A DNA stretch of 63,434 nt, filler included, from 16 parts of 16 records of this genome joined end to end with filler, not necessarily neighbours in it; one strand, 5' to 3'; numbered from the whole stretch's first letter, positions 1 through 63,022 are shown. Notes: generated by a model from the sequence alone, not told the origin. Translations and numbers: made by a program.

Positions 1-617
1 TAGATTTTGTACCACCTGGTTGATTGCGGCCTCAGGCACAACCAGTTGTTGATTTGACAGTGACCGGACTTGTGAATAATACACATGATTCACTGTTTAC
101 ATTAGCGACAATTTGTCATTGTCACTGTCTTCTGCTACAGTAGTCAGTACCGGTACAGCTGTACCGGTAGTCGCGCGCGCGACTAAGGAAAAAGCGGACG
201 AAAATTTTCACGCAACTTGCCTCAGTACTACTAGTATGAATAGTGTGCACAGTGTACTGTACTATACACTCTTAGAACTCGTGTACAGGTCTGTACGTAT
301 TACATGTTCTAAGCCGGTAACTTACGGTACAGGGAACATGATGATGAGTCACGCCTCAGCAAATGCAGTTCGTACTTATGATAGTACTATACTAGATCTA
401 GTACGCCCATTTGGCATGCAGGTGCGCGCTCTACTACTATTCATGAGTTATTGTATATACAAGTTGCAGCGCAGTCAGCGCACGCACGCGGTCCACGCGG
501 ACGCCGCGCGTGCGTGGGGCCTATGGGCTATGCTACGGCGATCATCGACGCGCAGGCGGGTTACACTGTCGGTATCGCAGGTCCGCACTGCTGAGGCACT
601 GTGACTCAGTGGTGGCG

Positions 618-2069
618 ATGATGCGCTGTGGGAGAGGAAAGCGGGAGGGCAAAGCTGTGCACGCGCCGCAGATGGAGAGGCATGCGCGGACAGCGAGACG
701 TGATACGCGGACGACCGACGAGGTGGAAAGAGTGCACCGCGCCATCGCAGAGGACGAGGAGAAGCTCGAGCTGATGCGTGGAATGATGGGGGGCGACCAT
801 CCAGACACTTTGCGCGCAATTCACAATTTAGCAGTGCTGAAGCAGGCCACAGGCGACTTGGACGGGGCCTTGCTCTTGTTTGCTGAGACTTTGCACACAC
901 GGAGACGAGAGCTGGGCCCTGACCATCCAGACTCGCTTCGGTCGGCCAACAGCCTCGCGACACTGCAGCAGGCCATGGGTGATTTGACCAGCGCAACGGC
1001 GATACACTTGAGTACGCTGAACGTCCGTCGCAAGATCCTGGGAGACTCGCACCCAGATACGCTGACGTCGATAAGCAACCTCGGAATGGCGCTTCATGCC
1101 AACAATAGACTGGACAGCGCTCAGGAGCTGTACGAGGAGGCGCTAGAGGCGCGCCGGCAGTCGCTGGGCCAGTACCACCCCGATACGCTGGGTTCCATGA
1201 ACAACCTAGGGTCGCTGCTGCACGACAAGGGCGATCTGAGCGCCGCTGAAGCGCTTTACACAGAAGCACTGAGCTTGTACCGACGGACGCTCGGAGATTT
1301 GCACCCACGCACTCTCTGCGCGATCAACAACGTCGCCTCGCTTCTGCAGGACAAAGGTGATCTGAACAGTGCTAAGGTTCTGTATGAGGAGGCGATGTCT
1401 GGCTGCAGACGGACGCTCGGCGATCAGCACCCGGATACGTTGGGCAGCGCAAACAACTTGGCCTACATCATGCAGGACGTGGGCGACTTGGACGGTGCAG
1501 AGACAATCTATGCACAGGTATTGTCCAGCCGTCGTCGGCTGCTGGGCGATGCACACCCGGACACGCTCAAGTCGATCACAAACCTCGCTTCCTTGCGACG
1601 GGTCAAGGAACATCTTAGCACCGCACAGGATCTTTACAGTGAGGTATTAGCAACGAAGCGAGAGGTGTATGGTGATGAGCACCCGTCCACAGCCGCGTCG
1701 ATTTACAACTTGGCGGAGCTTTTCATGTGCAAGGGGGAGTTGGCACAGGCACTTCCACTATTCGAAGAACACCTGGCAGGACTGCGACGGAGGCTAGGGG
1801 ATGATCTTGCGGAGACAAAGGCGGCGGTGGCCAACCTCACGTGGTTGCAGACTAACCACGCAGCCGCACTATCGCATGCGCAGGCAGCCAAGGAGCGCCG
1901 GAAACAGAACCTGGAGGCACAGTTAAATCAGATCCGTTCAGGCGAGAATCTGGACGTGGGGCGAACGAGCGCAGTATCCGGGACTCGCTCTGGTGAGGGG
2001 CCCAGGACTGTCGGTCTAGACGGAATTCGCCTGGACCACGTAGGACAGGAGGGTTTCTTCGATTCATGA
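618..2069 (+). CDS. TPR-repeat protein (kinesin light chain/nephrocystin-3-like 42-aa TPRs)
   Basis: About 8 tandem 42-aa repeats of the form LG.DHPDTL.S.NNLA. Intronless ORF; start taken at the first ATG (618), with 672 an alternative. Confidence 0.9.
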   Translation: MMRCGRGKREGKAVHAPQMERHARTARRDTRTTDEVERVHRAIAEDEEKLELMRGMMGGDHPDTLRAIHNLAVLKQATGDLDGALLLFAETLHTRRRELGPDHPDSLRSANSLATLQQAMGDLTSATAIHLSTLNVRRKILGDSHPDTLTSISNLGMALHANNRLDSAQELYEEALEARRQSLGQYHPDTLGSMNNLGSLLHDKGDLSAAEALYTEALSLYRRTLGDLHPRTLCAINNVASLLQDKGDLNSAKVLYEEAMSGCRRTLGDQHPDTLGSANNLAYIMQDVGDLDGAETIYAQVLSSRRRLLGDAHPDTLKSITNLASLRRVKEHLSTAQDLYSEVLATKREVYGDEHPSTAASIYNLAELFMCKGELAQALPLFEEHLAGLRRRLGDDLAETKAAVANLTWLQTNHAAALSHAQAAKERRKQNLEAQLNQIRSGENLDVGRTSAVSGTRSGEGPRTVGLDGIRLDHVGQEGFFDS

Positions 2070-2673
2070 TAGAGTGAGTGTGGAGTGGCCCTTCAGACTG
2101 TAATGCCTCTGTCCGAGTATCGATGATGTCGATCGATCCGTTAGTTGTTCTAGCGATACCGTATTTTGCTTCTGTAGAAATCTTCGACATCATTCGAATC
2201 GTATCGGCAGCAGCGATCGTATGGGTATATATTCGGAATCAACGAACTTCCAACTTTTGTCTTCCGTCCTCCGTCGTCCAACTACTCTGAGTGTGACTAC
2301 GCATGTATGTGAATACGTGTACAACTGTACAACTGTACAGCTGTACTGTTCGGTGTATCGTGTTTGTTGCCCGAGCTGCGTGTACTTGCTGCTACATACA
2401 GGTAGTAGTACTTCTTGAGTAGCACTAGTTGCTCCGAGCTAGTAAAATCTAAAGAAAGTAGAACCCTAGAAAATCTGTATACGGACATAGGGCATGCAGC
2501 TACATGCCCTATGTTCACCGTTCATCCTTAGGATCTTGCTGATCGATGGTGACGAAGCGTGCGAAAGAAAATGTGGCTTGGAGTGTTGCTCTCAATACAC
2601 TGTGTGCCGCGATCGAAACGACGAGCTAGTGGCATACAACCTTTGCCACACTGTCGCGGCGTAGCGGTTGCAC

Positions 2674-3741
2674 CTACCCGCTGGAACGTACGCTTCCGCG
2701 GACGTAGTCGATTCGGTGGTAAGTCGGCCAGTACGTATTGCTGTTCGGCGGCTTCGCCCAGGTTCCTGATCCCCCGATCGCAGTGTTCAGTATCAAAAAG
2801 AACGGCATATCCCAGAACAACGGCGCCTGCGTGTCATCCTTGCTCACGTTCACCAGGACTTTGTTGTCCACCACGAAAGCAAGGTAATCTTGCGTGTGTT
2901 CGACTGCGAACTCATGAAAGGTAGAGCCCCAGTCAACAGGCAAAGCAGTGCACTCATGGACGCTCTTGTGACCGACTGGATAAGAGCAGTTCTTCGCCGG
3001 CCACGTTGTCTGCCAGTGGTAGGTGCCGCACCTGCACAAGCCATGCGACGTCGGGTTTACAGGCGGACGTACACAGATCAGAGTGGGTGATGAGTAGCAG
3101 CGTTGGTCAGTGCAAGCAGAATTGCAGCCCTCACGCAGCACTCACGCTTGCGCGTTGCCGTCCACCATTTCCAAGATATCAATTTCACCCTCGTCCGGGT
3201 CGCACGAGCAGCCACCATTCTTCCCCGGGCCAGTGCAGGCTTGCGTGCCCTGTTCAGAGTTCGAATCATTTGGCATCATCCAGTGTGCTGGCCAGATTCC
3301 AGCCCCATCGTCAGCGGATGTCCCACCTGGCAGCATTGCGCTCACACAGACCCGATAGCCAGCGCCACCAGCGACACTCCACGTTGCCTTGTCGCGACTT
3401 GTCACCCCTGCGCTGGTGTAGTTGAAACAACCTTCCTTCGCGGTGCATTGTTGTGCTGGAAGCTTGTCGGACTTGAGAACTAGCTTGCCATCCTCGATGT
3501 ACACATTGTCCGCGTCGCAGCGTCCGAACCGTCCGATGCCAAAGCCGCACTGCCCAGCACTGTTGTGGAGATATTTCGACCAGCGGCTTGAATTCAGGTC
3601 CGGGCCATCGAATTCCTCGGCAAACGAGCGTGGCCAGGCGGCAGAGGCGTCACAGAAGCTTACCCTGCTTTTTACAGGCACGGCTGTTTGCATTGCAAGG
3701 GCCGCGGTGGCCAAAACGGTCGGCAGCAGAGGGTCCAGCAT
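2674..3741 (-). CDS. Secreted glycoside hydrolase family 16 (beta-glucanase/laminarinase-like); 2 exons, intron 3032-3145
   Basis: Signal-peptide-like N-terminus; EEFDG..LN...W, YTSA, GIWPAHWM, catalytic EIDILE motif, FHEFAVE and PFFLILNTAIGG. A GTGAGT...TGCAG intron joins the two ORFs in frame. Confidence 0.9.
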
Positions 3742-3838
3742 AGCGCTAATTCCGATCAGCGGGCCTAGCTCGCTCCGCGTCGACCGTCGCGCCAGCCGCG
3801 CCGCACAGCACCTACCTTAAATCACCCATCCGGCCATG

Positions 3839-3938
3839 NNNNNNNNNNNNNNNNNNNNNNNNNNNNNNNNNNNNNNNNNNNNTTAATTAATTAANNNNNN
3901 NNNNNNNNNNNNNNNNNNNNNNNNNNNNNNNNNNNNNN
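3839..3938. other. Artificial contig spacer N44-TTAATTAATTAA-N44 (first of 15)
   Basis: The same 100-nt linker with six-frame stops also occurs at 8835-8934, 12055-12154, 15225-15324, 18844-18943, 22745-22844, 28806-28905, 32800-32899, 36492-36591, 40478-40577, 44490-44589, 48089-48188, 53035-53134, 56235-56334 and 59634-59733. Confidence 0.99.
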
Positions 3939-4147
3939 ATTCAATTCGTTCCGGCACTTCACTTCACATTATTCTGTGGCGATGAGGCCGATTCATCACC
4001 TTCCCCATTACTGAGGGTGGCGTCATTCCGTGGTGACGGCGCTGGATCATCTCCTGAGGTGGCGAGCCCGAACCTTTGGAGTCTCACTCGACGCATTTCC
4101 TCCGCAGATGGTTCCGAGGAGTCTGAGGCTGCTGGCATATCGCCCAT
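3939..4147 (-). CDS. 5' fragment of a protein with an N-terminal SAEEMRRVRLQRF motif (VCP/p97-binding-like), truncated by the contig end
   Basis: ATG at 4147, MGDMPAASDSSEPSAEEMRRVRLQRFG. The motif resembles the (A/E)EE(I/M)RxxRLxR(F/L) segments of UBE4B-type p97 cofactors. Confidence 0.4.
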
Positions 4148-5517
4148 CTCATTCGTCGCCTCCTCCAACAGTATGAATACATCCTTCCAAAAAAAAAGTT
4201 GGAAATAGTAACTCTTTTTTTTTGACTGGTGGCTTTTTGGGCACCGGGCCACCGCGTTGGTCAGCATCGCGCTGATCAACGTGAGCCACTTTTTTTTTCC
4301 AGCAGATCACGGGAACAGTGTGCATTCTGCCGTAATTTCCCATCCTGGTTCATAAGTCAACAAGCCTGTAGATCTACTAGTAGTAGCCATACCGCATTCC
4401 CCTCGGGCGGTAGATCTAGCTAGCATCTACGCGTTGATACGACTCTGAAGGCAGAAGGCGGTCGAAGCGATGCATCCGCTCGTGGCGGCGCTGCAGAAAT
4501 TGGTGCTCTGGGCGTGCATGGGAATGAACGGTGAGCGGCTCCCCCTCCCGCCATGATCTGACGTCAATCTCGCTGGCTCGGTTCCGTCGCCCGTACCAGC
4601 ACCTGGATTGTACGGCTCGCTCGCTGCTGCGTGCTGCCACGCTGGCTGGCTGACTGGCTGGTATGAATCGGAGCAGCATGGTACATAATGTATCCGGGGC
4701 AGGTCGATGCGGCTTTGGGCGGGCAAAAGGCCGGCGCCGTCGCACGCACCGGAACTTTTCTAATCGTCCTTTGGATTTTCCTGTTCGAGCGCATGCGGGC
4801 CGCAGAAGATAAGGAGAAGGTGCGGGAGAAGGCACAAGAGCCGGGACTGGGAGCGGGGGTGGAAGCTGCTACGTCGAACACTGCGGAAGGTCAATCTAGC
4901 AGCACTACGAAAGAGGGTGGTTCAGCATCAGCCATGCGCAAGCGCGCAGGTGAAGGTGACAGCCAGCACAAAGGAGGCGGGCCCACGGTCGAGATTATTG
5001 ACTGATGACCGATGCCTGACCAGCCATAGCCCGCTGACAGAGCCATGATGCGAGGCACTGTAGGTAGCCATACCGTCCACCCTCATGGAGGTGATCACCA
5101 GCGACGTTGTGTTCGTGGACAGCTTCCGTGCATTAGGGTGGAACACCAGTACCTGTCCTCGGACAAACGCGCCCTGGCGAGGGTTCCACCCAACGAACAC
5201 AGCCACTGAGCAGGTGCAGGTGTTGCACCGAGTCGATGGTCGTATCAAAAGTAGCACTGCGAATGATGGAGCAGATCCGCAGCGCGCGCGTGGCGGGGCA
5301 AGCTTGTGTCCGCGATGGGGAAGCGTGCGGATGTGTGCGTATCGCTGCTGTGGGCGCAGAGTCGTCAGTACTAGGTAACATGTCAGTGGATTGAGCCCAT
5401 GACTGAGGCTGTCGCTACTTTTTCCACCTGCCCTCTCATTCCTGTTTGCAGTCACTCAGAGCGTTCGGTCCGCTCACCACTTTCTAGAGAAAGGTCATTC
5501 TTGCCTAGTGCGGAGCA

Positions 5518-7961
5518 CTAGACCGGATCTTCGGCAGCGCCGTCCCCTGTTGGTGGGACTGCGATCTCCGGCGCGGGTTCCGGCTGCGCGTCATCTTCCA
5601 CTTCAAATACCTGAGACAGAGTCGGCAGGGTCTTTAGCGTCGCATCCTGCGAAACGCTACGCGTTTTCAAGAAATGCGCACCTCTTCGACGTCGCTACCA
5701 GATCCGCCGTTTTGTCTCAGTCTACCTTTCGAGTCGAGACGAGGTCTCCTCCTCCAGCACTTCGTCTCATCACCCTCCGTTCCAGCCGAAGACTCTCCAT
5801 CCTCCCCACCATCGTCAACAGTCTCGTCCTCCACTCTGGCAGACTCCCTGCAGAACACAGCGCACACATACCGTCGTAATCGTTGTACTGTCAGGGTAAG
5901 CAAACACTAGCCGTGAGGTCAGACAGCTCCATCGCGCACCACTCAGCCCGCAAATCGGGGTGATAGTGCTCGATCTCCTGGTAGAGCACCTCCCGCAGCA
6001 TCTCCTTCGTCATAGTCTTCGCTTCTTCAAAGACAAACTCTGATTTGTCCAGTCTAGGTGTTTCTGTGTACGGTATTTGCGCCCCGGGCAAGTCGCGAAT
6101 TGCGTCGAAGTATTGATGCTCCACAGCAGCCGCTCCCGAAATGCCTGTGGCAGATAGCGTGTCAAAATCATTTGCAGCTCAGCACAAAAAGGCAAGCGTG
6201 CGGACTGAGCATCTGCCAGAAGACATGTGAACACGCGCCAGGCAGTTGCTCGCATCCGCAGTTGGTCCACGAAGAAATATCAGTTGATAGGTGACGGATC
6301 GCCGACTTACGCCTGTCCGCGGAAAACATGAGCATCTCCTTGATCAAGTCCAGCTCCAAGTCGTCGGCCTCGCTCGGGAAAAAGGCCCGAAACTCAGTCG
6401 GCCTCTTGCTGCGCATGGTGCGTAACAGCTCCTTAACGCGGCTTGACCGAAGTGATTGCAAATCTTCACGTGACGGCGCGCCTACTAAGTCCGTGATGAG
6501 GTCTAATTGCTGCTCGCCGTTCTTGCCGGGAAAGAGTGCCTTGCGCACGAGCAGCTCCGAGGCAATACAGCCGATCGACCAGATATCTATTGCAGCGGTG
6601 TACCGCGTGAGGTAGCAGCAGATTAGCTCCGGCGCGCGGTACCAGCGACTTGCTACGTAGTCTGTCCATAGCGCGACCGTTTCCTCCTCGTCATCGGGTT
6701 TGCGCGCGCGTGCCATCCCGAAATCGCAAATCTGCACAGCAGGAAGATAGTGAGCAGCAAGTAGGCACCAACACATGAAGACGATGAGGATCACAACAAC
6801 GAGACCAACCTTGCAGTCGCAGTTTGCGTTGATCAGGATGTTGCCCGGTTTCTGCAGCAGCATAAATCCAGTCAGCAGCGCGTCGGCCAACAAGCAAGCG
6901 GGCCGGCCGCCTGATCACGCTCTTGCGGAATTCACGCGCGTTCACGCACCAGGTCGCGATGAAAGACTTCGGCTGAGTGCATGTGTGCCACTCCTTGCAA
7001 TATCTGCGCGGCGGCGAACTGGGTGAGTCGCTGTTCTCACAGCTGCTCGCTGCGGATGGCTGCGATGTGAAAGCGTGAGCGTGATCACGTTCAAAATCAC
7101 GCTTTTGCGCAGGACGACCCCCAACCCACACGCGCATGATTGTGCAGCTGCAATTGCGCACCTGGTACAGCACCCACCGCCTATGCGTCATATCGTAACG
7201 CGTTTCAGAGCGAATCATGTGGTTCAGATCCGTGTCGAACAGCTCGAACACGATGTGTCTGTATCGAGGCGAAAGGTCGCAGGAGCAGAAGGCAGGCAGC
7301 GGGAGCAGTAACGGCACGCGTTGTATCAGCCCACGCACGAAGCACCAAGTGTCAATTTGGACGATGACGAGATGGCTGAGAGGCTGTGCGCACATGTCAT
7401 TGTACGATTTCCTGTTTCTCGGAAGCAGGACGTCCTCCACTGCCACAACCTGCAGCGGCGCAATGCCAGTCAGGCTGGCGGCACGCAATCTCGGGCACGA
7501 CGAAGAGATATCGGGCGTACATTGGCATGTTTCAGAAGCCGCAGGAATCGCAACTCGCGCACGATGCGCAGCGCGTCCTCCCGAACCTCGAAGACCCTAT
7601 CGATGTGCTTGATGGCAACCTTTTTGTTATCCTTCGTGCGGCAGCGCCCAGCCCTGCGTGGCCCCAAGACACACCCGCGAGTGAAGCAAACCATCTAGCG
7701 GGTGCGCAGCGACGCACAGCGCTGACCACCGCGCTGCCCGCTGTCTGGAGTCTGCCAGCGCCTCCCAGGGAGGAGGGACAGCCTGCTGGCATCCAAAGGC
7801 CGCCTGTGTGGTGAGGTGAGGTCGCACCAAACGACTCCATAGGCTCCCTTGCCGACGATGTGCGACACCTCGTACTTGCTGCCGCCGAATGCATCCGCCT
7901 TGGAGTAGGCCGTGGGCAGCTTCTTCCCGCCCTTCCCCGCCTTTGAGCTCCTCCGCTGCAT
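5518..7961 (-). CDS. Mitogen-activated protein kinase with a TDY activation loop (plant group D-like); about 10 exons
   Basis: Spliced reading gives GKGAYGVVW, VAIK, RELRFLRLLKH, HRDLKPGNIL, DFGMAR and WTDYVASRWYRAPEL. GT-AG introns at 7654-7827, 7450-7520, 7259-7393, 7004-7161, 6852-6949, 6732-6809 and 6145-6310, plus two less certain 3' introns. Confidence 0.93.
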
Positions 7962-12154: not shown

Positions 12155-12241
12155 TGTGGCTGGAGCGGCTGATTCGGGCTGCTGTGGTGGGCTTTGCCGG
12201 GTCTTGTTGCTGCCGGGAATTCGGCGGGAATTCCAACTTGC
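12155..12241 (+). repeat. Left terminal inverted repeat (87 nt)
   Basis: TGTGGCTGGAGCGGCTGATTCGGGCTGCTG...GGGAATTCCAACTTGC matches the reverse complement of 15138-15224 with 5 transition mismatches. Confidence 0.97.
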
Positions 12242-12267
12242 CCACGCTAGCTTTCGCTTGCTGCCAA

Positions 12268-14874
12268 ATGGAGCGTAGGCAATCCGCACGCCTGTGTCAA
12301 GCGTGCTCGAACCCCCAAAGCCATAAGCTTAAGCATGTGTGTGGCAAGGGACGTGGCAAGCGTTCCATGGATGATGTGGTGGAGCCAGCGGCCCGGCGGC
12401 AGCGTTCTGGTGACCAGTCCTGTGAGGTGGTGCCAATGCTACCTGAGTTGCTCGGTTCCGCGAGTGATAAGTTTGCGCTACTGAACAAAAGCGATTACGT
12501 GATAGGAAAAGAGGTGTTTGTCGATGGGTCCAACTCCCATTGTGATGGTGGGCATGGCAAGATTGTATCGCTCAAGCCACGTGCAGGAACGGCACAGAAC
12601 CGTGTGCAGGTAAAGTTCTGCGCAACGGCGAAGTCAGCTTGGGTGTCTCATGGGTCATTGCTCTTGTGGGATAGCGACACAAATGGACCAATGCTGCGAT
12701 CCAAACGACGCGCTGCTTCGCGCGATCCATGCGATACTCCACACGCTAAGCGTGCACGGGGTGGTGCATCTACGGCAGTCAAGCGTGACAGCTTGACGGG
12801 CGACAAAATGGACGGTGTCAATGCTGCATCTGTGCCTGATACGGAGATAAAACGCGACAGCAGCGACAGTAGTTCATGCACCACACGTAGGTTCGATGAG
12901 AATAAGATTGAGATTGAGCTCCAAGTGTGGGCCTGTGGAGAAGTTACATTTCGACTCCACATAAAGGGATCACATCTGGCGGTGCGACACAATCAGAACC
13001 TGGCACGAACGAAAGAGATGTTAGCTGCGTGTCTAACTGTAGTGGTGCCACGATTGCAAAAGATAGCTGATGCCATGTCGTTGCCAAACATTCACGTGTG
13101 GGCAATTAGCTTGCGATGGGCTAGAGCCGAGTTTAAGAATGTGTTCAGGTCCTGCGGGGACTTTCGCAGCATTGGGGTCTCTGCTGCCAAACGAATGACT
13201 GCAGCGAATATTAGCGAGTGGTATCGCGAGGAGACATTACACACGTGGTCATTGATATGCACATCGTGTATGTCTCAGGTTGCCAACACTAACCAACCAC
13301 ACCTGCAACAATTGTATTCAGTCACGGACGAAAACATAAGCTCGGAAGCAATCCAGCGTCGCAGAGAGGATGATTATAGAGCCAAGAAGAACATTCGCCA
13401 TGCAGCCATGCGAAAACACAACCAGGCGATTCTTCGAGTGTGGTCTAGCACACAGTGTATTGTCAGTGCCAACGTCAACTACGCTAGCAGAGGAGCGTAT
13501 CAAAGAGATCGACTCACTAACCGTCATCATGTCGCTGGAAAGGCTCGTCGAGTGTTGTTCCGTGGTGGCTGCAGTGATGTCTCCGTCCCAGTACGCATGA
13601 CTGCGCGCAAGCAGAAAACAGCAGAGGAGCCATCTGCAGCAGCACCAACAGGCACATTGTATGAGCAGCGCATGGCAGCAACGGCAAAAGTAGGCAATGC
13701 GTACGGGAATACTGCCCTCGCAACCCCGTTTCCGGCGCAAACCAAGCGAAATTTGCACACGTACAGCACCACTGCTGCAAAGCATGGCAAGCAATACCTC
13801 ACGAAGGTCAACAATAGCACGGTGCTCGGCATTGGTGCTGTGACACAGACCCTGCACAGCGAGGTAAAAGCGCATGCAGGGGACACACCTACTGTACTCG
13901 AGTCCATCGGCTCAAAATGGAGCTCAAATCTGCCCACTGGCCTCTATGCCCTGATCGTTGAGCCAGAAGCACTCTTGATCGAAGTCACCGACTCAGGAGC
14001 AGGCTCTCGATTAGCGCATGCATGGGTGATGCCAGTTGGCACGGTGAAGGCGATGGTGTCAGAAGTCACCATGGCCGCTTGGGCTGACTTCGTTGGCCCT
14101 CAAGATGTCGAGGACGCAACGCTCCAGGCTAAGACAAACGGTGCGCGGCCGATTGATGTCTGCGTGTGCGATCAGTTCGCGTGCAGCCGTTGCAGCCACT
14201 CCAAGCTCTTTTCGGGTGTGGATACTGAGAGAATGCCTGCAGCATTCCGGCTTGGTGAATCAGCAGACCAACAGCTAGCAAAGAATGCAAAATGGGCTTG
14301 GCAAGACCGCAAGCGAGCGTGGAAAATTGTGCACAGATGTTTGGAGCAGGAGTACCAGGCTTGTATGGAGGCGCTGCCTGCTGCTTCTGTCAAGTTGAAG
14401 CCAGATCAGCAAAAGCAGCTAGAGGGAGCCGTGTCTTCTGAGACAGTGCTGCCCATTTTGCGCAGAAACTGTGGGGAGGACTGGCTCAAGAACGCTGGCT
14501 TCGGTGGCGATGAACCTGAGGCAAGCAAGCGCATGGAGGGGGTGATTCGGGGCTGGTTGAAACATCAGCTCGGCGTCGACCCGAAGAGCACTCGCAAGAA
14601 GAAGGGACTAGCAGTCGATTTGCACAAGCAGTGGGATCGAGGCGTACCAAGAGTGTTCCAGAGCCAACAAGTAATGGCGCGCTGGACCGATGGCCGCGGG
14701 AACGTGTCCACTGCGCCATGGAACGGCCACTATAGAGCGCAGGTCGTTGGGGACGCGATCTCCGGACAGTATCGACTGCTGTTCGCCCCCCATGACGGCC
14801 ACCCAGCGCAAGAGCATCCATGTGTGCCGATCGAGCACATCGATCATAGAGATCCTCGAATTTGGGATGAATGA
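12268..14874 (+). CDS. Hypothetical 868-aa protein with a CxxC..H...H.C motif, Tudor/PWWP-like barrels at both ends and a CxC..CxxC motif
   Basis: Uninterrupted ORF; first ATG about 27 nt inside the left TIR's inner edge. Motifs CQACSNPQSHKLKHVCG, VQVKFCATAKSAWVSHGSLLLW, CVCDQFACSRC and VMARWTDG...HYRAQVVG...YRLLF. Confidence 0.75.
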   Translation: MERRQSARLCQACSNPQSHKLKHVCGKGRGKRSMDDVVEPAARRQRSGDQSCEVVPMLPELLGSASDKFALLNKSDYVIGKEVFVDGSNSHCDGGHGKIVSLKPRAGTAQNRVQVKFCATAKSAWVSHGSLLLWDSDTNGPMLRSKRRAASRDPCDTPHAKRARGGASTAVKRDSLTGDKMDGVNAASVPDTEIKRDSSDSSSCTTRRFDENKIEIELQVWACGEVTFRLHIKGSHLAVRHNQNLARTKEMLAACLTVVVPRLQKIADAMSLPNIHVWAISLRWARAEFKNVFRSCGDFRSIGVSAAKRMTAANISEWYREETLHTWSLICTSCMSQVANTNQPHLQQLYSVTDENISSEAIQRRREDDYRAKKNIRHAAMRKHNQAILRVWSSTQCIVSANVNYASRGAYQRDRLTNRHHVAGKARRVLFRGGCSDVSVPVRMTARKQKTAEEPSAAAPTGTLYEQRMAATAKVGNAYGNTALATPFPAQTKRNLHTYSTTAAKHGKQYLTKVNNSTVLGIGAVTQTLHSEVKAHAGDTPTVLESIGSKWSSNLPTGLYALIVEPEALLIEVTDSGAGSRLAHAWVMPVGTVKAMVSEVTMAAWADFVGPQDVEDATLQAKTNGARPIDVCVCDQFACSRCSHSKLFSGVDTERMPAAFRLGESADQQLAKNAKWAWQDRKRAWKIVHRCLEQEYQACMEALPAASVKLKPDQQKQLEGAVSSETVLPILRRNCGEDWLKNAGFGGDEPEASKRMEGVIRGWLKHQLGVDPKSTRKKKGLAVDLHKQWDRGVPRVFQSQQVMARWTDGRGNVSTAPWNGHYRAQVVGDAISGQYRLLFAPHDGHPAQEHPCVPIEHIDHRDPRIWDE

Positions 14875-15137
14875 AGTCTCATTGGTCACACATAGCGCGT
14901 TGCGCCACAACGCTAACAAACTGTTGCATGCAAAGCACAGGCACATGGTTATCAACCCAGCAACAACAACCCAGATACACACACCCACACACATTTGCGG
15001 ACACACCACTGTGCCATCAACTAACGCTGCGAATCGGACTTTGTACGTCCATTCTCCTCCATACTTCATGGCCCACCGTCGTGTCGCAACAGTGTAAGCA
15101 AGCACGCAACCATACCGTAAACGAGGCAGCGACAGCA

Positions 15138-15224
15138 GCAGGTCGGAATTCCCACCGAATTCCTGGCAGCAACAAGACCCGGCAAAGCCCACCGCAGCAG
15201 CCCGAATCAGCCGCTCCAGCCACA
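15138..15224 (-). repeat. Right terminal inverted repeat (87 nt)
   Basis: Reverse complement of 12155-12241; ends ...CCGCTCCAGCCACA at the contig end. Confidence 0.97.
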
Positions 15225-22881: not shown

Positions 22882-25800
22882 ATGGCGGCGGCGGCGGCGG
22901 GTAGCCCGAGCAGCAGCGCGCCGAAGACGCCGCCCGGGGGACCGGGAAGTTGGCAGCAGCGCTGTCGCGAGGAGGTCGGCTGGTACGCGAACGGAGTGGA
23001 GGGCGTGCCGGAGGCGCAGGACTCCTACACCGGCAGGCAGACGCGGGAGTTCATCGTGAAGTACATAACCACCCGGGAGAATGAGACGCCGAAGCAGATC
23101 GTGGGGAACCTGGAGGATGTGCGGCTGGAGGACTTCCTGGAGCTGAACAACACGCGGTTCTTCAGCGGCGCGCTCAAGGCCTCCAGCAGGCTGCGCAAAG
23201 CGACGAAGCTGCTCATCCCGACCTTGGCCCAGGGAGACAACGGCAAGTTCACTGACGGGGAGGTGCGCGCGACGAACTACCAGATCTGGCTGGTCGAGCA
23301 CACGGACGGCGAAGTGACGGAGCTGCTCGCTTCAGAGGTGCAGGAAGCGGTGTGGTGCTACCGGCGGATCAATGAGGGCTGGACCATCGCTACGGATGCC
23401 CCTCATATGGGGGCTCGCGTCCGACGCGTGTTTCCCGACCAGAAGGATCCCAACGACCCCGACCAGCCGTACTGTGTAAACGGGACCCTCGTCGGCTACC
23501 TGCCCCCGGGCGAGGACGAGGACGACTTCGCGATGTGGCACATGGTACATGATGGCGGAGATGACGATGAAGACCTGGAAGCCGCCGAAGTAGAGGAGGG
23601 CATCCAATGCTACACTGCATTCCAATCCAACAAGCAGGTTGTTCCCGCGAGACCTGCAGCAGCGCCCGCGCCCCCGAGCAAACGGGAGTCGAGCAAGACG
23701 GAGCCGCCCTCGAGCAAAAAGGAGCCGCCCTCGAGCAAAAAGGGGCCGGCCTCAAGCAAAAAGGAGCTGCCGTCGAGCAAAAAGGAGCCGCGCACATCGA
23801 CAGATGCAGCACCAGACAAGGAAGTCAAGAAGAGAAAGGACAAGAACGCACCAAAGGGCCCTCGTGCAGCATTTGCCTTCTTCTACACCGAAGTGCGCGC
23901 AGACATGGTGAAAAGAGACCCGGACTTAACATTTGCCGACGCAGGCAAGCGTATTGGGCAGCTGTGGCGCGATATGGACGCGGACTCGAAGGAACCATAC
24001 GTCGCAATGGCTGATGAGGACAAGCTTCGCTATGCAAAAGAGATGGAGAGCTACGTGCCGCCAGTGGAACAGGTCCCTTCGCCGAAGCGTCAGAAGGGCA
24101 AGGCCACGCAGTCGCCGGTAGAGAGCTCCAGCTCCGAGTCCGAGTCAAGCTCGGAATCGGAATCCGAATCCGAATCAGAGTCTGAATCGGACTCTGACTC
24201 CGAAAACGACAAGGACGCTGGTAAGGAGGACATCGAAGACGCTTCATCGCAACCGAAGGCCCACGATGCGGAGTGGAAGGACCTAGACGAAAAGCAGCGC
24301 GACGCTGCACGAGTGCTTGGCTACACTGAAGAGCAGTGGCAAGGCAAAGAGGTACCCCCTGCTTGCGTTGGCTCGCACTGGGAAACGGACCCAGATGTAG
24401 TACGGACCTGGGAGGAGCTATCACCTGAGCAGTTGGAAGCGGCCCAGGCACTCGGGTATGAGAAGTGGGAGTGGGATAATGCGATGCGAGACGGCGTACT
24501 TCCTGCAGACAACGCATCAACCTCGATGTTTCTAGTAAAGGAGGAGTGTTTCGCGTTTGACTCCGAGGGCAAGGCTTACCAGGCAGTTGTCAAGAAGACG
24601 CGAAGAACAACCGCAACACACGTCCCGTCCCCAGCCAAATATAAAATGGGTTCCCCGAACAGGAAAGAGACCGATGCAACTGTGGAAGACACTATAGGCC
24701 ACGAACCAAATACGAACGGCCAGCCATCGAAAAGATGGGAATATTTCATACATTACAAGGGCTGGAAGTCGAGATGGGACGTGTGGATGACAAATGAGAG
24801 CATTTTCAAAAAAAATGCCGAGAATGCCAAGCTTTGCACCGAGCAAGGTGAGGACGTGAGCAAGGGTCCGTCAGGCTTTTCAAAGAAGGACAAGGAGGCA
24901 CAGAAAGAGAAGCTCAGACAGGAAGCGCTGGCAAAGAAGCAGAGGGAGTTGAAGGCGAAGAAGAAAGCCCAAAAGGCCGCCAGGCGAAAGGCCAAAGTTG
25001 TAAGAAAGGCCGCCAAGGCAGAGGCCAAGAAAGTCAAAGCAGAGGCCAAGCGGGCCAAAAAAACTGCCAAGCGGAAAATGTCTGGCGATGGGACAACTGT
25101 CGACGGAAAACCAAAACGCATTCGCCCGTCGAAGGTTACGGAGGATCGCGTGCGTCGAAACAGCTCTGAAGCCCAAGCAGCACGCCAAGTGCAGCAGACT
25201 GCACTGCCCGAGATCTTGCAAATCCAGCTGTCGCAGGACTACAAAGCATGTCATGACCAGCAGAAGGTGATTGCGCTGCCTCGGAAGCCGTCTGTGGCGC
25301 AGCTGTTCGAAGACTTCGTCACGGCGAAGCTCAAATCGATCCAGTCGAAGCTTTCAAGGGGGCATCGGATTGCTAGTGGCGGTGGCGACGGCGGCCCTGA
25401 CCAGACCACTGCTCGGTCGACTTTGCTAGTTGGCGCCGGTGCTGCCAGCGCAAACAGCACGTCGCCGCCAGGTGCAGCAGCAAAGGATGCCATCTCGGCC
25501 GACGGTGCACAGCAGAACATGAATGGTGCTGTACAGGCACCTAAAGTGCCCAAGTCGAAGAAGGGAATGACGAGTATGCAATGGTCGGACGAAGAGAATG
25601 AGTTGCTACTCAGATTGATTGAAGAAGATGGGGGACCCAACGACTGGCTAAATAAAGCTGCAAAGCTCGGAACCAAACGGAGTGGCGAGGCAGTCTACAA
25701 GCACTATAAGATCCTGGTAAACGAACGTGGACTCACTGGAGGCAATTTCGACTTAACACCGAGAGCTCCGCCGAAAAACTACACTCGCGAGCCTGATGCC

Positions 25801-26592
25801 AAGGTCCAGCATCGTGAGCAGACTATCATGGACGCGAACGAGCTAGCTCAGCACCGTGAGCAATGCAAGCGCTTGATTGCTCCTTGGGAGGAGCTATGTC
25901 GGGGACTGCGCGAGTTTTTCAACGCAGCGCTACTCCCCTTCCTACTGTACAAGTCAGAGCGAGAGCAAGTCGCGGACTTGAGGCGTACCTATCCGGAGTC
26001 AGCTGGTCATGATTTTGCATCACTATATGGACCGGAACACATGCTGCGACTGCTGGTACAGCTACCGGTGCGTGCAAAGTATCGTCCACGCGATTTGCTA
26101 CTCCGCGCAATAGTTGTTTTACCGCAATGCAGTGCAGAGCTAACGTGGTCCATCTGACCAAAATAATGGTGAATGCAGGAACTAATTGCAGGCATACCCA
26201 GAGAGCAGAAGGACGACACGGTGAGCCGTATCTACGGCCAGCATGGTTTTGCACGTTGGTTTGAGCGGCATTTTTATGACTGGTTCCACGACCCCGACGA
26301 TAACTACGTTGCCATCAGTGAGAACCCGTCGCTTGCCACAGCAGTTGCTGAACGCCCCGCTGAGAGCATGGGTGAAACTACGGCAATTGAGGATGCCGGC
26401 GGCGTCGGCACCACCTCAGCCGCGGAGCAACCGGCCTACTTGCGACCTAAGGAGCCTTCAAGTGCCATCGCAGCTGCTTCAACCGGCGTGCCGATTCAGG
26501 AGTCTGGCGCCTCAGTCAAGCATTCCAAGCTACTGTCTCGACTGCTATCCTCTCCAGAGGTGGTCAGTCCAGCCAGTGATGCTACGGGTTAG
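22882..26592 (+). CDS. MRG15/Eaf3-like chromatin protein with added LysM-like, Tudor-like, HMG-box and Myb/SANT domains; intron 26068-26178
   Basis: HMG box KDKNAPKGPRAAFAFF...DKLRYAKEMESY; chromo-barrel YFIHYKGWKSRWDVW; Myb WSDEENELLLRLI; MRG domain LPRKPSVAQL...GLREFFNAAL..FLLYKSEREQ...SLYGPEHMLRLLVQLP. Confidence 0.85.
23689..23790 (+). repeat. Coding tandem repeat, 21-nt unit (SSKKEPP), about 5 copies
   Basis: tcgagcaaaaaggagccgccc variants in tandem. Confidence 0.85.
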
Positions 26593-59733: not shown

Positions 59734-62700
59734 ACAGCAACAGCAACAGCAACAGCAACAGCCCGTGGCATCAAAACCACAACGGCAACCGCAGTCGCAA
59801 GCAGAACGGCTCAGACTACCACTACCGGAGCCAGAGACACAGTGGATGCCACAAAGCGGACTTCCAGAAGGTAATCCAGTTGTTGCACAGCCGATAAAGT
59901 GGAAAAAGCAACCGAAGAGAACTCCTAATGCTCATCCCGCGGCAGATATCCACAAGGCCCCTCGCGCAGCCAATGCAGCAGGTGGTGACTCTGTTCCTAG
60001 TATTGAAAGTCCAGTGCAGGAAGCAGTGACAGGACCTGAATTTAGCGCCGACGCTCAATCTGCTTGTGCTGCAGATGGATCCCAACAGCAGCTGACAAGT
60101 ACATCATGGGATTCAGAGCAGGCGGAACATAAGACACCCGTGGCAAGTCCGATGCTGCACGTGTGCGAGGCACCAGACAAGAAAATGCCGGACACGCAAG
60201 AAGAAAGTTTGGCGTCACCATCCGAGCAGACGCAGCTGGAGCATTTGTATCAATCATGGAAGTTTAGCACTCTCATCCGCAGAGCTCGAGCATTGATGGA
60301 CGAAGATGAGGTCCTAGCAGCACAGGACAATGATCGTCCTCGCGATGCGGTTCAAAACCTGCTAATCAGTTGGCAGTTGGATGCAAAAGTGAGCACGCTA
60401 ATTCGCCACGCACGCTCGCTAGGTGTGGATGAAGACGCTATTCTGGACGCACACGATGATGATATTCCTAAGTTTGCACTGACGACGCTGATAATTGATG
60501 CAAAAAGTGGAAAACGGAAAGATGAGTCAGCGACTTCGACCATGCAAACGCCCGATGCAATCGATTCAGAGCTTCCGCAACCAATTGTACAGCCATTCTG
60601 CAACAGCTCTGAGCGTGGAAATTCAGAGGAGGTAGAGGTGTCCATGTCCTTGCAACGCAAAACAAACGTTGAGACTATTCATGCTTCGTTGGACGTGGAG
60701 TCAACGCGGTGTTCACTATGTCAAGGTCTCCTCGTTCGTCCGAAGTTGCTCCCATGTCTGCACAGCTTCTGCTGTAGCTGTCTTCAAGGGCATTATACAA
60801 CCATGAATACGAAACGGCGCAACACCACGAACATGATTGCGTGCCCACAATGCAACTCTACCAGCGCTCTCAGTGGTGGCGGCGTTGCGGCCCTACCGTC
60901 AAATTATTGGGCAGAGCAACTCCAGAAGGGTGTACATACTGCTGTCGGATCACCAGAAGAACATATAGAGCATTGTGAAGAGCACAGGGACGCCCTCACT
61001 CTGTTCTGTGAAGACTGTGACAAGCCAGTCTGCCGTGACTGTGTACTCAACTCACATTCGAGCCACAAGTACACCTCTGTTGTAGACGCCCGTGCCTTGC
61101 ATGCAGCTCGGATCGAAAAGCAGCTAGAAAGCACTGTTCGCAGGGGTGCTGCAGATGCCGAGCGCGCAGTTTTGGCTTGCACGACGGTGCGAAACCTTGT
61201 TGCTGAACGTACACAGCAGGTGGTACAGGAGGTTGACTTCTTTATAGAGGCACAGATTGAAGAGCTGCATATGCGTAGGCGAGAGCTGGTACAGCAAGCA
61301 ATGTCGCTGCAGCAGCAAAAGCTTGGAGCCCTTGACGCTCAGTGCACAGCGCTGTCATCAGATTGCAAAATTCTCTGCAGCGTAGCGCACTTCGTCGACA
61401 AGGCAATTCGTTACAGTCATGGGGCAGAGCTCCTGTCCATTCGCTCCTTGATCACAGATAGAATGCAGGAGTGCATGGCCAACACGACCCCTTTCGAGCC
61501 AGTAGAGGACGCATCTACACACTTTGTTGAACCATCGAGGCTGACTGAAGCAATCCGTACCGCGGGAGTTGTGCACGACCGGGCCGGTTATCCTCCCAAC
61601 TGCTTTGCTCGTGGTGACGGATTGAGTCAAGCGGTGTGTGGAGAAAAGGCTCACTTCGAAGTCGTTAGCGTGGACAGGTCAAGTGTCCGACGCACAGAAG
61701 GCGGCGACGCATTCTTGGTCCGTGTGATGATGGTACAGTCTCAGTCCAGTCATGAGCACAGCAACGAGACTGAGTCGAGTGGATCGGTTGTAGACTGTGG
61801 CGACGGTCGGTACATCGTGACCTACAAGCCACAATGTGTGGGACCTTACCAGGTCGCAGTAAGGCTGCGCGGTGAGCACATCAGTGGATCTCCTTTCAGC
61901 GTTGGTGTGATTGCCAAGAGTTTTCCACCTGGCCTACGGCTCTCAGACCTCGGCAGCGGTTCTGATGGGACTCTCATCGTCACAAGAGCCATGGTATTGA
62001 GCGAAATTTCAAGACAGTATGTTGATGTGATTGTTAAGCAAGGGGGCACACTCACATGCCATCGATGGGGTGGAGAAGCACGGTTTAGCAGCAGCAGTGG
62101 CGGTGGGGGCAAGCTTGAGTTGCGATGCCGTGGTCGTGTTGTGGTAGAGCGTGGCGGTGTGATCGACGTGTCCAGGTGCGGATATCAAGGGGGTGCTGCA
62201 CTTGGAGCATCACGTTCGCAGGCAGGAGGCCACTTCACATCGAGCGAGAACTACGGCCAGCAGGGGGAGTCATTAGTGGGAGTTGGGCGTGGCTGGCGCG
62301 ATTCAAATGGTGGTGGCGGCGGCGGCGGTGCAAGCAATCCGCTGTTCGGAAGCGTTGGAGGTGGCGGAGGTGGCTACGGCAGTGTAGGGGAAGATGGAAC
62401 TGTACTGCACAGCAATGGCACTGAGTATGACGGTGGGCGCGGTGGCCAGGTGACCGGCAGCTCACAGCTCGACCCCCCTCTTCTTGGCAACGGTGGTGGG
62501 TCTGGTACGGGAATTGCCGGCACAGGTGTCTCGCGGCCAGGTCGCGGTGGATCTGGCGGAGGCGTCTTGGTCATCGTCTGCCGTGAGCTTGTTGTACAAA
62601 GCGGTGGCGTTATTCGCGCTGATGGAGAGGATGGTGAGGGAGGCACAGCCCCGATGGATTCCGGCGGCGGCGGAGGTAGCGGTGGGAGCATTCTAATATG

Positions 62701-63022
62701 TGCAGGCGAATTGCATGCAGCCACTGGCTCGGTAGTCACCGCTCGGGGAGGACGCGGCGGACCGCCTGGCCACTTGAACACTCTAGACGCAAAAATATCG
62801 CCGGCGTTCAGTACAGCCGGGGGTTGCGGTGGAGTCGGTCGCATCCATGCGTTGGTTGCGGCTGGGGGGTTTCAAGGAGAGGTATTGCCGCAGCCGTTGC
62901 TGACGAATGCTCCACAGCCTCGAGTGATCGAGCGTGCAGCTGCGACGAACATGCAATTGCCAGCCCACGGCCTGGAGCAGCAGCCGTTTACAAGAGCACA
63001 CGGCACAATCGCGCTAGAGTAG
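59734..63022 (+). CDS. TRIM-like E3 ligase: RING, B-box, coiled coil, filamin repeat and glycine-rich C-terminal domain; probably 5' truncated
   Basis: RING CSLC...PKLLPCLHSFCCSC...CPQC; B-box CEEH...LFCEDCDKPVCRDC...H..H; filamin GDGL..A..GE.A.F.V...RRTEGGD.F.V...D.GDGRY.V.Y.P...G.Y.V.V...HISGSPF.V. Confidence 0.88.

Follow-up and report, generated by a model that had tools for sequence, protein, structure and literature searches.

A contig bounded by inverted repeats is probably the centre of an internally deleted DNA transposon from a marine eukaryote

Maize Ds, which derives from Ac, and Drosophila KP, which derives from the P element, are internal-deletion derivatives of class II transposons with terminal inverted repeats (TIRs). 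Internal deletions of this kind, which result from interrupted gap repair, are the usual signature of cut-and-paste DNA transposons. We describe here a contig that appears to be a derivative of the same type. It occupies positions 12155-15224 (3070 nucleotides, nt) of the stretch of DNA that was analysed (63,434 nt in total, hereafter the window), in which 16 contigs of 3.1-6.0 kilobases (kb) each, with 55-60% G+C, are separated by N/TTAATTAATTAA spacers; the region under study is one whole contig. An initial annotation, made from the sequence alone, had presented it as a possible new element bounded by inverted repeats and carrying a gene for a chromatin-reader-like protein but no recognisable transposase. 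Like Ds and KP, the copy in the window keeps repeat arms and coding ends but has lost the middle, with a microhomology of two nucleotides at the junction, and several independent deletions are found within its family. Unlike Ds and KP, its family has a parent transposase that fits no recognised superfamily, and mobilisation in trans is only predicted. We consider it probable (about 0.7) that what was assembled here is the unique middle portion of a non-autonomous copy, internally deleted, of a TIR DNA transposon that in its full form is about 6 kb or longer and belongs to an uncultured marine eukaryote.

One line of evidence for this reading comes from the intronless open reading frame (ORF) of 868 amino acids (P0001), which starts 27 nt inward of the left repeat arm, as the initial annotation had described it. 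Sequence of the contig occurs in 13 public sequencing runs, all labelled as seawater metagenome libraries. Although these are entered as 13 studies, their year, label and size are the same, and a single campaign may lie behind them. We compared the contig with public contigs of three DNA runs (X1, X2 and X3) and one RNA run (X14). In X1 and X3, contigs of 5433 nt consist of window positions 12205-13628, then 2461 nt, and then positions 13627-15174; given the two-nucleotide overlap (GA), 2463 nt are extra relative to the window. X2 has matching loose ends at 13627/13628, and all three runs carry the extra 2463 nt.

The length of the full protein, 1689 amino acids, was predicted first. A search in the 'longer' length class then gave exactly one match, P0060, a protein of 1689 amino acids encoded on a 5974-nt JGI contig. 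P0001 is identical to P0060 at 451 of 454 positions over residues 1-454 and at 413 of 415 over residues 1275-1689 (99% on both sides), and the difference in length (1689-868) is 821 codons. The letters of the loose ends, translated by hand, read DKLIRDYGVQ and VVEFDDPDCP, which are the P0060 residues at the two borders of the gap. By alignment, then, the 868-amino-acid ORF is evidently an exact in-frame deletion product of the 1689-amino-acid protein. An intron of 2463 nt was considered and rejected: GT-AG, GC-AG and AT-AC boundaries are impossible in all three registers on either strand, and the segment is coding in P0060. The initial annotation had seen no DDE (aspartate-aspartate-glutamate), recombinase or polymerase motif in the 868-amino-acid protein, and this observation stands. 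However, the missing transposase appears to be a property of this copy, which has lost 821 central codons, and not of the family.

The contig is flanked by inverted repeats that are identical at 82 of 87 positions and differ at arm positions 31, 61, 71, 81 and 84, in every case by a transition, which agrees with the earlier description. The similarity ends at position 88, inward of which the arms are unrelated. Terminal inverted repeats are present in only this one of the 16 contigs, and the first 30 nt of the contig occur twice in the window, compared with 0.00 occurrences expected (100 shuffles). The TGT...ACA sequences at the two ends had been taken for the termini of an element. They are instead assembly break points inside a longer inverted repeat, because the contig stops exactly 30 nt outside the outermost arm mismatch (position 31), which is the distance (k-1) at which a path loses uniqueness in a graph with k=31, and because public contigs continue outward. 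In X1 and X3 the first difference between the arms is at position 81, and both ends of the inner contig fall at arm position 51 (window positions 12205 and 15174; 81-30). A single stem contig spans arm positions 1-80 and then runs unbranched outward for 375 nt in X1 and 399 nt in X3. The read depth of the stem relative to that of the inner contig is 19.9 versus 11.4 (1.75-fold) in X1 and 22.2 versus 16 (1.39-fold) in X3. X2 has an overhang of 161 nt beyond 12155 and bubbles inside the arm. In addition, the reading frame of a diverged copy available as a protein fragment only (P0007) stays open over 46 codons 5' of the ATG, which takes it about 25 nt past the start of the contig. The inverted repeat of the element in the window is at least about 486 nt long, and the 87 nt are its innermost, slightly diverged part.

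Since the TGT...ACA sequences are not termini, the argument for a relation to Ginger-type elements falls; the likeness consisted only of the TG...CA dinucleotides at assembly breaks, and no integrase (rve) or other Pfam domain is matched by P0001 or P0060, while the relative P0044 matches only Tudor_4, weakly (expectation value, E=8.9e-4). DNA continues past both ends, and a linear element of 3.07 kb is therefore contradicted. A linear plasmid or virus-like element was likewise rejected, as contigs run 161-399 nt past the end, there is no polymerase domain, and no relative was found among viral contigs. The initial annotation had itself named a chimera of multiple displacement amplification (MDA) as one finding that would undo its proposal. 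We rejected an MDA inverted chimera: the arms differ at five positions (four of them CpG), the stem-loop layout occurs in both X1 and X3, and the gene is present in three runs and on a separate JGI contig.

The copy in the window is separate from the form found in X1-X3: three more CpG sites, on which X1-X3 agree, together with arm positions 31, 61 and 71, set it apart from the full-length copy. With the diverged P0007, at least three sequence variants are represented (the window copy, the X1-X3/P0060 form and P0007). Six differences separate the window from the contigs of the public DNA runs, and every one of them is a transition between CpG and TpG/CpA, as are four of the five arm mismatches, for a total of 10 of 11 variants. 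The observed/expected ratio of TpG plus CpA in this contig is 1.46, the highest of the 16, and the CpG ratio is lowish (0.88). A bias of this kind is expected from deamination of methylated cytosines, and it suggests that the host methylates these transposon copies. Four of the five coding differences between the window copy and the full-length form are non-synonymous, and the window copy has the deaminated allele at three. One of the substitutions in P0001, R378H, replaces a residue that is kept in P0060, P0003 and P0044. From these differences, which are small in number, we infer that the window copy is decaying and not under purifying selection.

With P0001, the exhaustive representative search detected 20 proteins (E<=1e-3). 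They are encoded on contigs of 0.5-7 kb, and their sources are without exception metagenome collections (ENA, JGI/IMG, Logan, MetaClust/TARA and NCBI bins). Each of these matches either the N-terminal half (residues 26-439) or the C-terminal half (452-862) of P0001, and never both. A word-indexed protein search in the 'near' length range, using P0001 whole or its residues 452-868, returned no relative. Searches of metagenome contigs with P0001 or with the alignment of P0060 and P0044 also returned no relative locus, and the same was true of viral contigs. P0044 (1485 amino acids, from a contig of 5388 nt) aligns collinearly with P0060 along about 1440 amino acids at 29% identity, and the collinear segment includes the region deleted in the window.

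The mobile character of the family is indicated by a relative with perfect TIRs that lie beside an EF-hand ORF. This relative (L001) is a 6805-nt contig assigned to a 'Planctomycetota' bin, and it encodes a member of the P0044 cluster. Its element spans positions 121-6499 (6379 nt) and has perfect 40-nt inverted ends, CAC...GTG (CACTTCTCCCC...GGGGAGAAGTG, also given as CACTTCTCC...GGAGAAGTG); the terminus begins CACTTCT. The right flank is an open EF-hand ORF of 102 amino acids, and the other flank has splice-acceptor-like sequence. Because of these flanks, L001 is most likely a misbinned, stray eukaryotic contig. Of 401 genomes in its phylum, the other 400 have no match, and its bin contains no second copy. 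In its annotation, the L001 protein appears as a hypothetical protein of a planctomycete. Another conserved block, likewise inverted and with the core CTTTGACCCGCGAGGTAG, is located at L001 positions 508-548 and 6082-6122, about 390-420 nt inside each end. The DNA between this block and the 40-nt terminal repeat is unrelated between the two sides, and the block may be a subterminal binding site.

Four independent deletion derivatives were identified in the family, and in each the central region is wholly or partly gone. The window copy is without P0060 residues 455-1275, P0036 is without the P0060 equivalent of about 430-1646, P0059 is without P0044 residues about 177-1030, and L001 is without P0044 residues 512-752 and is frameshifted. 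P0036 and P0059 read across their junctions as single ORFs and retain the N-terminal half and C-terminal parts, although P0059 drops out of the family frame before its C-terminus. The conserved domain of the N-terminal half (residues about 210-450 of P0001) is kept in all four.

The layout of the full-length protein P0060 consists of a zinc knuckle, a beta-rich barrel, the conserved N-half domain, a central region of about 650-820 amino acids, a second barrel, and a C-terminal section with a cysteine cluster, helices and a third barrel. The modules that remain in the window copy are listed in Table 1. The knuckle and the cysteine cluster noted in the initial annotation are both upheld by their conservation in relatives. 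The C-half module is homologous to P0009, P0010, P0011, P0014, P0016 and P0017. The barrels had been proposed to be of Tudor, PWWP or Agenet type. Their motifs are indeed conserved, but their identity as chromatin readers has received only sub-threshold matches. Among 16 family members, Tudor_4 is matched in one (E=1.1e-4, below the cut-off) by the middle barrel of P0009, which is the barrel lost from the window copy, Tudor_2 in two (E=0.13) and Agenet in one (E=0.032). The Tudor domain of PHF1 is matched at a sub-threshold E=0.47-2.3 (0.47 with the profile of 16 sequences). When the three barrels were compared with one another using hhalign, probabilities ranged from 0.1 to 11% and none was significant. 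These weak matches point in one direction, and a Tudor identity is plausible. A JmjC identity for P0001 was rejected, as the ESM clusters reach at most 0.83, under the useful range, and there is no JmjC Pfam match.

Table 1. Features of the contig, in window coordinates.
Feature	Position	Strand	Basis or remark
Left inverted-repeat arm, inner 87 nt of longer repeat	12155..12241	+	82/87 match to right arm
Two copies of CGGGAATTC, 11 nt apart, in left arm	12214..12233	+	Read directly from sequence
ORF of 868 amino acids (P0001), 1689-amino-acid protein minus residues 455-1275	12268..14874	+	Alignment to P0060
Zinc-knuckle-like CxxC...HxC motif, residues 10-25	12295..12342	+	Kept in 4/5 aligned N-termini; no Pfam match
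Beta-rich 'barrel 1', residues ~75-135, motif IG..VFVDGSNS	12490..12672	+	Motif in 4/4 covering sequences; no Pfam match
Conserved N-half domain, residues ~210-450	12895..13617	+	Matches P0003 (E=3e-50), P0036 and P0044 residues 4-220
Deletion junction, 2463 nt (821 codons) missing, 2-nt microhomology GA at 13627-13628	13626..13629	+	X1-X3 contigs, P0060 alignment
C-half module, residues 454-868: conserved region with cysteine cluster, helical region, C-terminal barrel	13627..14871	+	
TNG..P..CVCD cysteine cluster	about 14158-14196	+	Conserved in C-half relatives covering it
Tudor-like 'barrel 3', residues ~795-855, F.gQrV.ArWT...G...Y.a.V...g.yRllF...HP.VP..I.	14650..14832	+	Motif conserved in alignment; sub-threshold matches to PHF1 Tudor, Tudor_2 and Agenet
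Unique 3' non-coding stretch, 263 nt, stop codon to right arm	14875..15137	+	
Right inverted-repeat arm, inner 87 nt	15138..15224	-	X1, X3: no separate contig over its outer 50 nt

What the window copy has lost is mainly this central region, which we presume to be the catalytic core. Residues that P0060 and P0044 share unchanged include W533-x-D535 (W.D..P), D621-H-K, H-L-A-D652-D653-V, FKNFVYGWH and F-x-F-E1055-x-x-H-K. By inspection, D535, D621 and E1055 would fit the order known from RNase H-like transposases, in which a D on beta1, a D on beta4 and an E on a helix follow one another, here interrupted by a long insertion. After the HLADDV motif, sub-regions of a relative give weak Pfam matches to HeH (E=0.0028) and SAP (E=0.16). 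ESM neighbours of P0060 residues 455-1110 comprise an unnamed cnidarian cluster (0.95), in which 12% of the members have a SAP domain, RAG1 RNase H/ZnC2/ZnH2 clusters (0.89-0.91) and Transposase_21 of CACTA elements (0.90). We treat the RAG1 and Transposase_21 neighbours as leads only.

Apart from these leads, the family resembles CACTA/CMC and Transib/RAG1 elements in that the termini of L001 begin with CAC(T), and in the size of the protein and the long insertion that separates its candidate second D from the E. In contrast, the Pfam models of these groups, with those of RAG1 included in the library, are not matched by the full-length proteins at E<=10. The L001 terminus is CACTT, which shares four of five letters with CACTA, and it is not the CACAATG of Transib; no duplication of 2-5 base pairs is visible. 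The family also resembles the chromodomain Gypsy elements and Gypsy-10_Ec32 of Ectocarpus, as in each case a mobile-element protein is involved and the barrels here give weak matches to the Tudor clan. However, those are integrases of long terminal repeat retrotransposons, while the present family consists of TIR DNA elements. Gypsy-10_Ec32 is stated to be the first reported transposable element with a Tudor domain (PMC12477816). Our literature search located no description of this family or of a DNA transposon with Tudor domains; transposable-element libraries were outside its scope, and the family may already be catalogued there.

A cut-and-paste mechanism, a DDE/RNase H-like core and an origin of the deletion in gap repair are inferred from these features. 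The full-length element would consist of a single gene, transcribed from the subterminal region, for the 1689-amino-acid protein. This one protein would bind the long inverted repeats, its central core would cut and rejoin the element, and the barrels together with the SAP/HeH motif could tether the complex to chromatin. The 2463 nt would have been lost between the two-nucleotide microhomologies as the product of interrupted gap repair after excision. This event would have removed the presumed catalytic core and the middle barrel and fused the N- and C-terminal modules in frame. The window copy would be immobile alone, and would move only with full-length protein supplied in trans and with both of its true termini intact. 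We favour the view that the fused 868-amino-acid ORF is an inert remnant over a role as competitor or regulator.

A number of results weigh against this account of the contig. No Pfam family is matched by P0001 or P0060 at E<=10, nothing relevant in NCBIfam is matched by the full-length proteins, and sequence and profile searches of the PDB gave only noise, including those with the deleted core; no recognised transposase domain was found. AlphaFold models have a mean predicted local distance difference test (pLDDT) score of 34.9 for P0001 and 31.1 for the core (with an alignment of two sequences), and yield no usable fold. In the ESM search with the core, only one of the ten best family-bearing hits agrees with the best one, and the assignment was flagged as 'probably wrong'. 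The L001 flanks show no target-site duplication (CATCC, element, CAGGA), though the contig may join flanks of different copies. The deletion junction is absent from the public contigs of X1-X3 and depends on the assembly of the window. Moreover, a deletion that is in frame and leaves the fused ORF intact has a chance probability of about 1/3, but is also what would be expected of a selected truncated protein.

This last point bears on the strongest rival explanation, according to which the truncated 868-amino-acid protein is itself functional as a reader-only protein. It would regulate the family by binding the ends and poisoning or titrating the full-length enzyme, or would have been adopted by the host. 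The exact frame of the deletion and the absence of a stop in the 868-amino-acid ORF agree with such a role, as do the continuous ORFs of P0036 and P0059. In addition, RNA contigs of the metatranscriptome X14 match positions 12314-12958 at 99% or more. However, that stretch is common to the deleted and full-length forms, and the contigs may derive from DNA. In-frame junctions are also not the rule, since P0059 loses the family frame and the deletion in L001 creates a frameshift, and the excess of non-synonymous CpG transitions in the window copy (four of five), with R378H at a conserved residue, speaks for decay. We therefore regard a functional truncation as unlikely.

Less likely still is that the junction is a chimera, made from a normal full-length element during assembly or amplification. 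That none of X1-X3 has the junction is what this explanation would predict, and the 13 libraries are small (1.2-2.1 gigabases each). On the other hand, a k-mer graph is unable to skip 2.4 kb over an overlap of two nucleotides, the window copy is distinct at the three CpG sites and arm positions described above, and comparable deletions are present in three relatives of other sources. The poorest account is that the contig is not from a transposon, but carries a member of a host gene family for a three-barrel chromatin protein between inverted repeats or is an invertible or linear cassette: the absence of a recognised transposase family, the lack of a visible target-site duplication in L001 and the weak Tudor-clan matches would suit a host gene, but they are outweighed by the perfect 40-nt CAC...GTG ends directly beside the EF-hand ORF of a host in L001, the four independent internal deletions, the existence of diverged copies such as P0007, the presence of the family on stand-alone 0.5-7 kb contigs in many metagenomes, its restriction to one of 401 genomes in the phylum of a bacterial bin (as expected of a stray eukaryotic contig) and, for a linear cassette, the DNA that runs on past both contig ends.

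An internally deleted TIR transposon thus remains our preferred reading of the contig. The initial annotation correctly recognised DNA of a mobile element bearing inverted repeats, with an ORF built of accessory, possibly chromatin-reading modules in place of a catalytic domain. The contig is not a complete element, however, and an invertible cassette, which had also been proposed, is unlikely because in a relative TIRs of the classical type adjoin a host ORF. A deletion derivative of a TIR transposon is in itself ordinary, and it is the parent family that is unusual. A bolder proposal, which we advance only tentatively and consider rather doubtful, is that the parent family constitutes a new superfamily. 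Its protein of about 1700 amino acids would combine an uncatalogued nuclease core, perhaps a distant RNase H of the RAG1/Transib or CACTA type, with a SAP/HeH motif and as many as three Tudor-like barrels, which would direct insertion towards marked chromatin, and recurrent in-frame loss of the core would give rise to reader-only regulators or host-adopted proteins.

Two further features of the repeat may be mentioned. The CGGGAATTC sub-repeats in the left arm each contain GAATTC, and their mirror images in the right arm, at about 15146-15165, have both lost the CpG; the sub-repeats may serve as sites of protein binding. On the reverse strand, an ORF of 194 amino acids (14608-15192, MGFAGSCCC...) begins in the right arm, as the mirror image of the frame left open across the left arm. 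This ORF seems to be a by-product of the repeat structure and not a gene.

Long ORFs on other contigs of the window encode eukaryotic domains, including RING/B-box/filamin, EGF, anoctamin, MRG/HMG and galactocerebrosidase. A TRIM-like ORF with RING, B-box and a filamin repeat is located at 59846-63022 (+), and an ORF rich in TPR_10/TPR_12 at 618-2069 (+). The TRIM-like, TPR, EGF, anoctamin and galactocerebrosidase ORFs indicate an intron-poor eukaryote as the source. The ORF of 1091 amino acids at 22882-26157 (+) contains an HMG box, an MSL3-type chromo-like barrel, a Myb-like stretch and an MRG domain. It looks like a host chromatin protein with no relation to the contig bounded by inverted repeats. 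A scan of the entire window with Rfam gave no match.

The transposase-free, repeat-bounded element first perceived here was a false lead: the copy is gutted, and its apparent ends are a product of assembly. Long imperfect inverted repeats can cause a k-mer assembler to yield contigs with apparently exact 'terminal' repeats. The parent family is a single-gene TIR element present in many marine metagenomes, and its 1689-amino-acid protein has no Pfam, NCBIfam or PDB match. The almost exclusive divergence by CpG transitions, if it is caused by methylation, would give information on an uncultured protist host. If the barrels are truly Tudor domains, the family would be a DNA transposon with histone-reader modules, which could tether its integration to marked chromatin.

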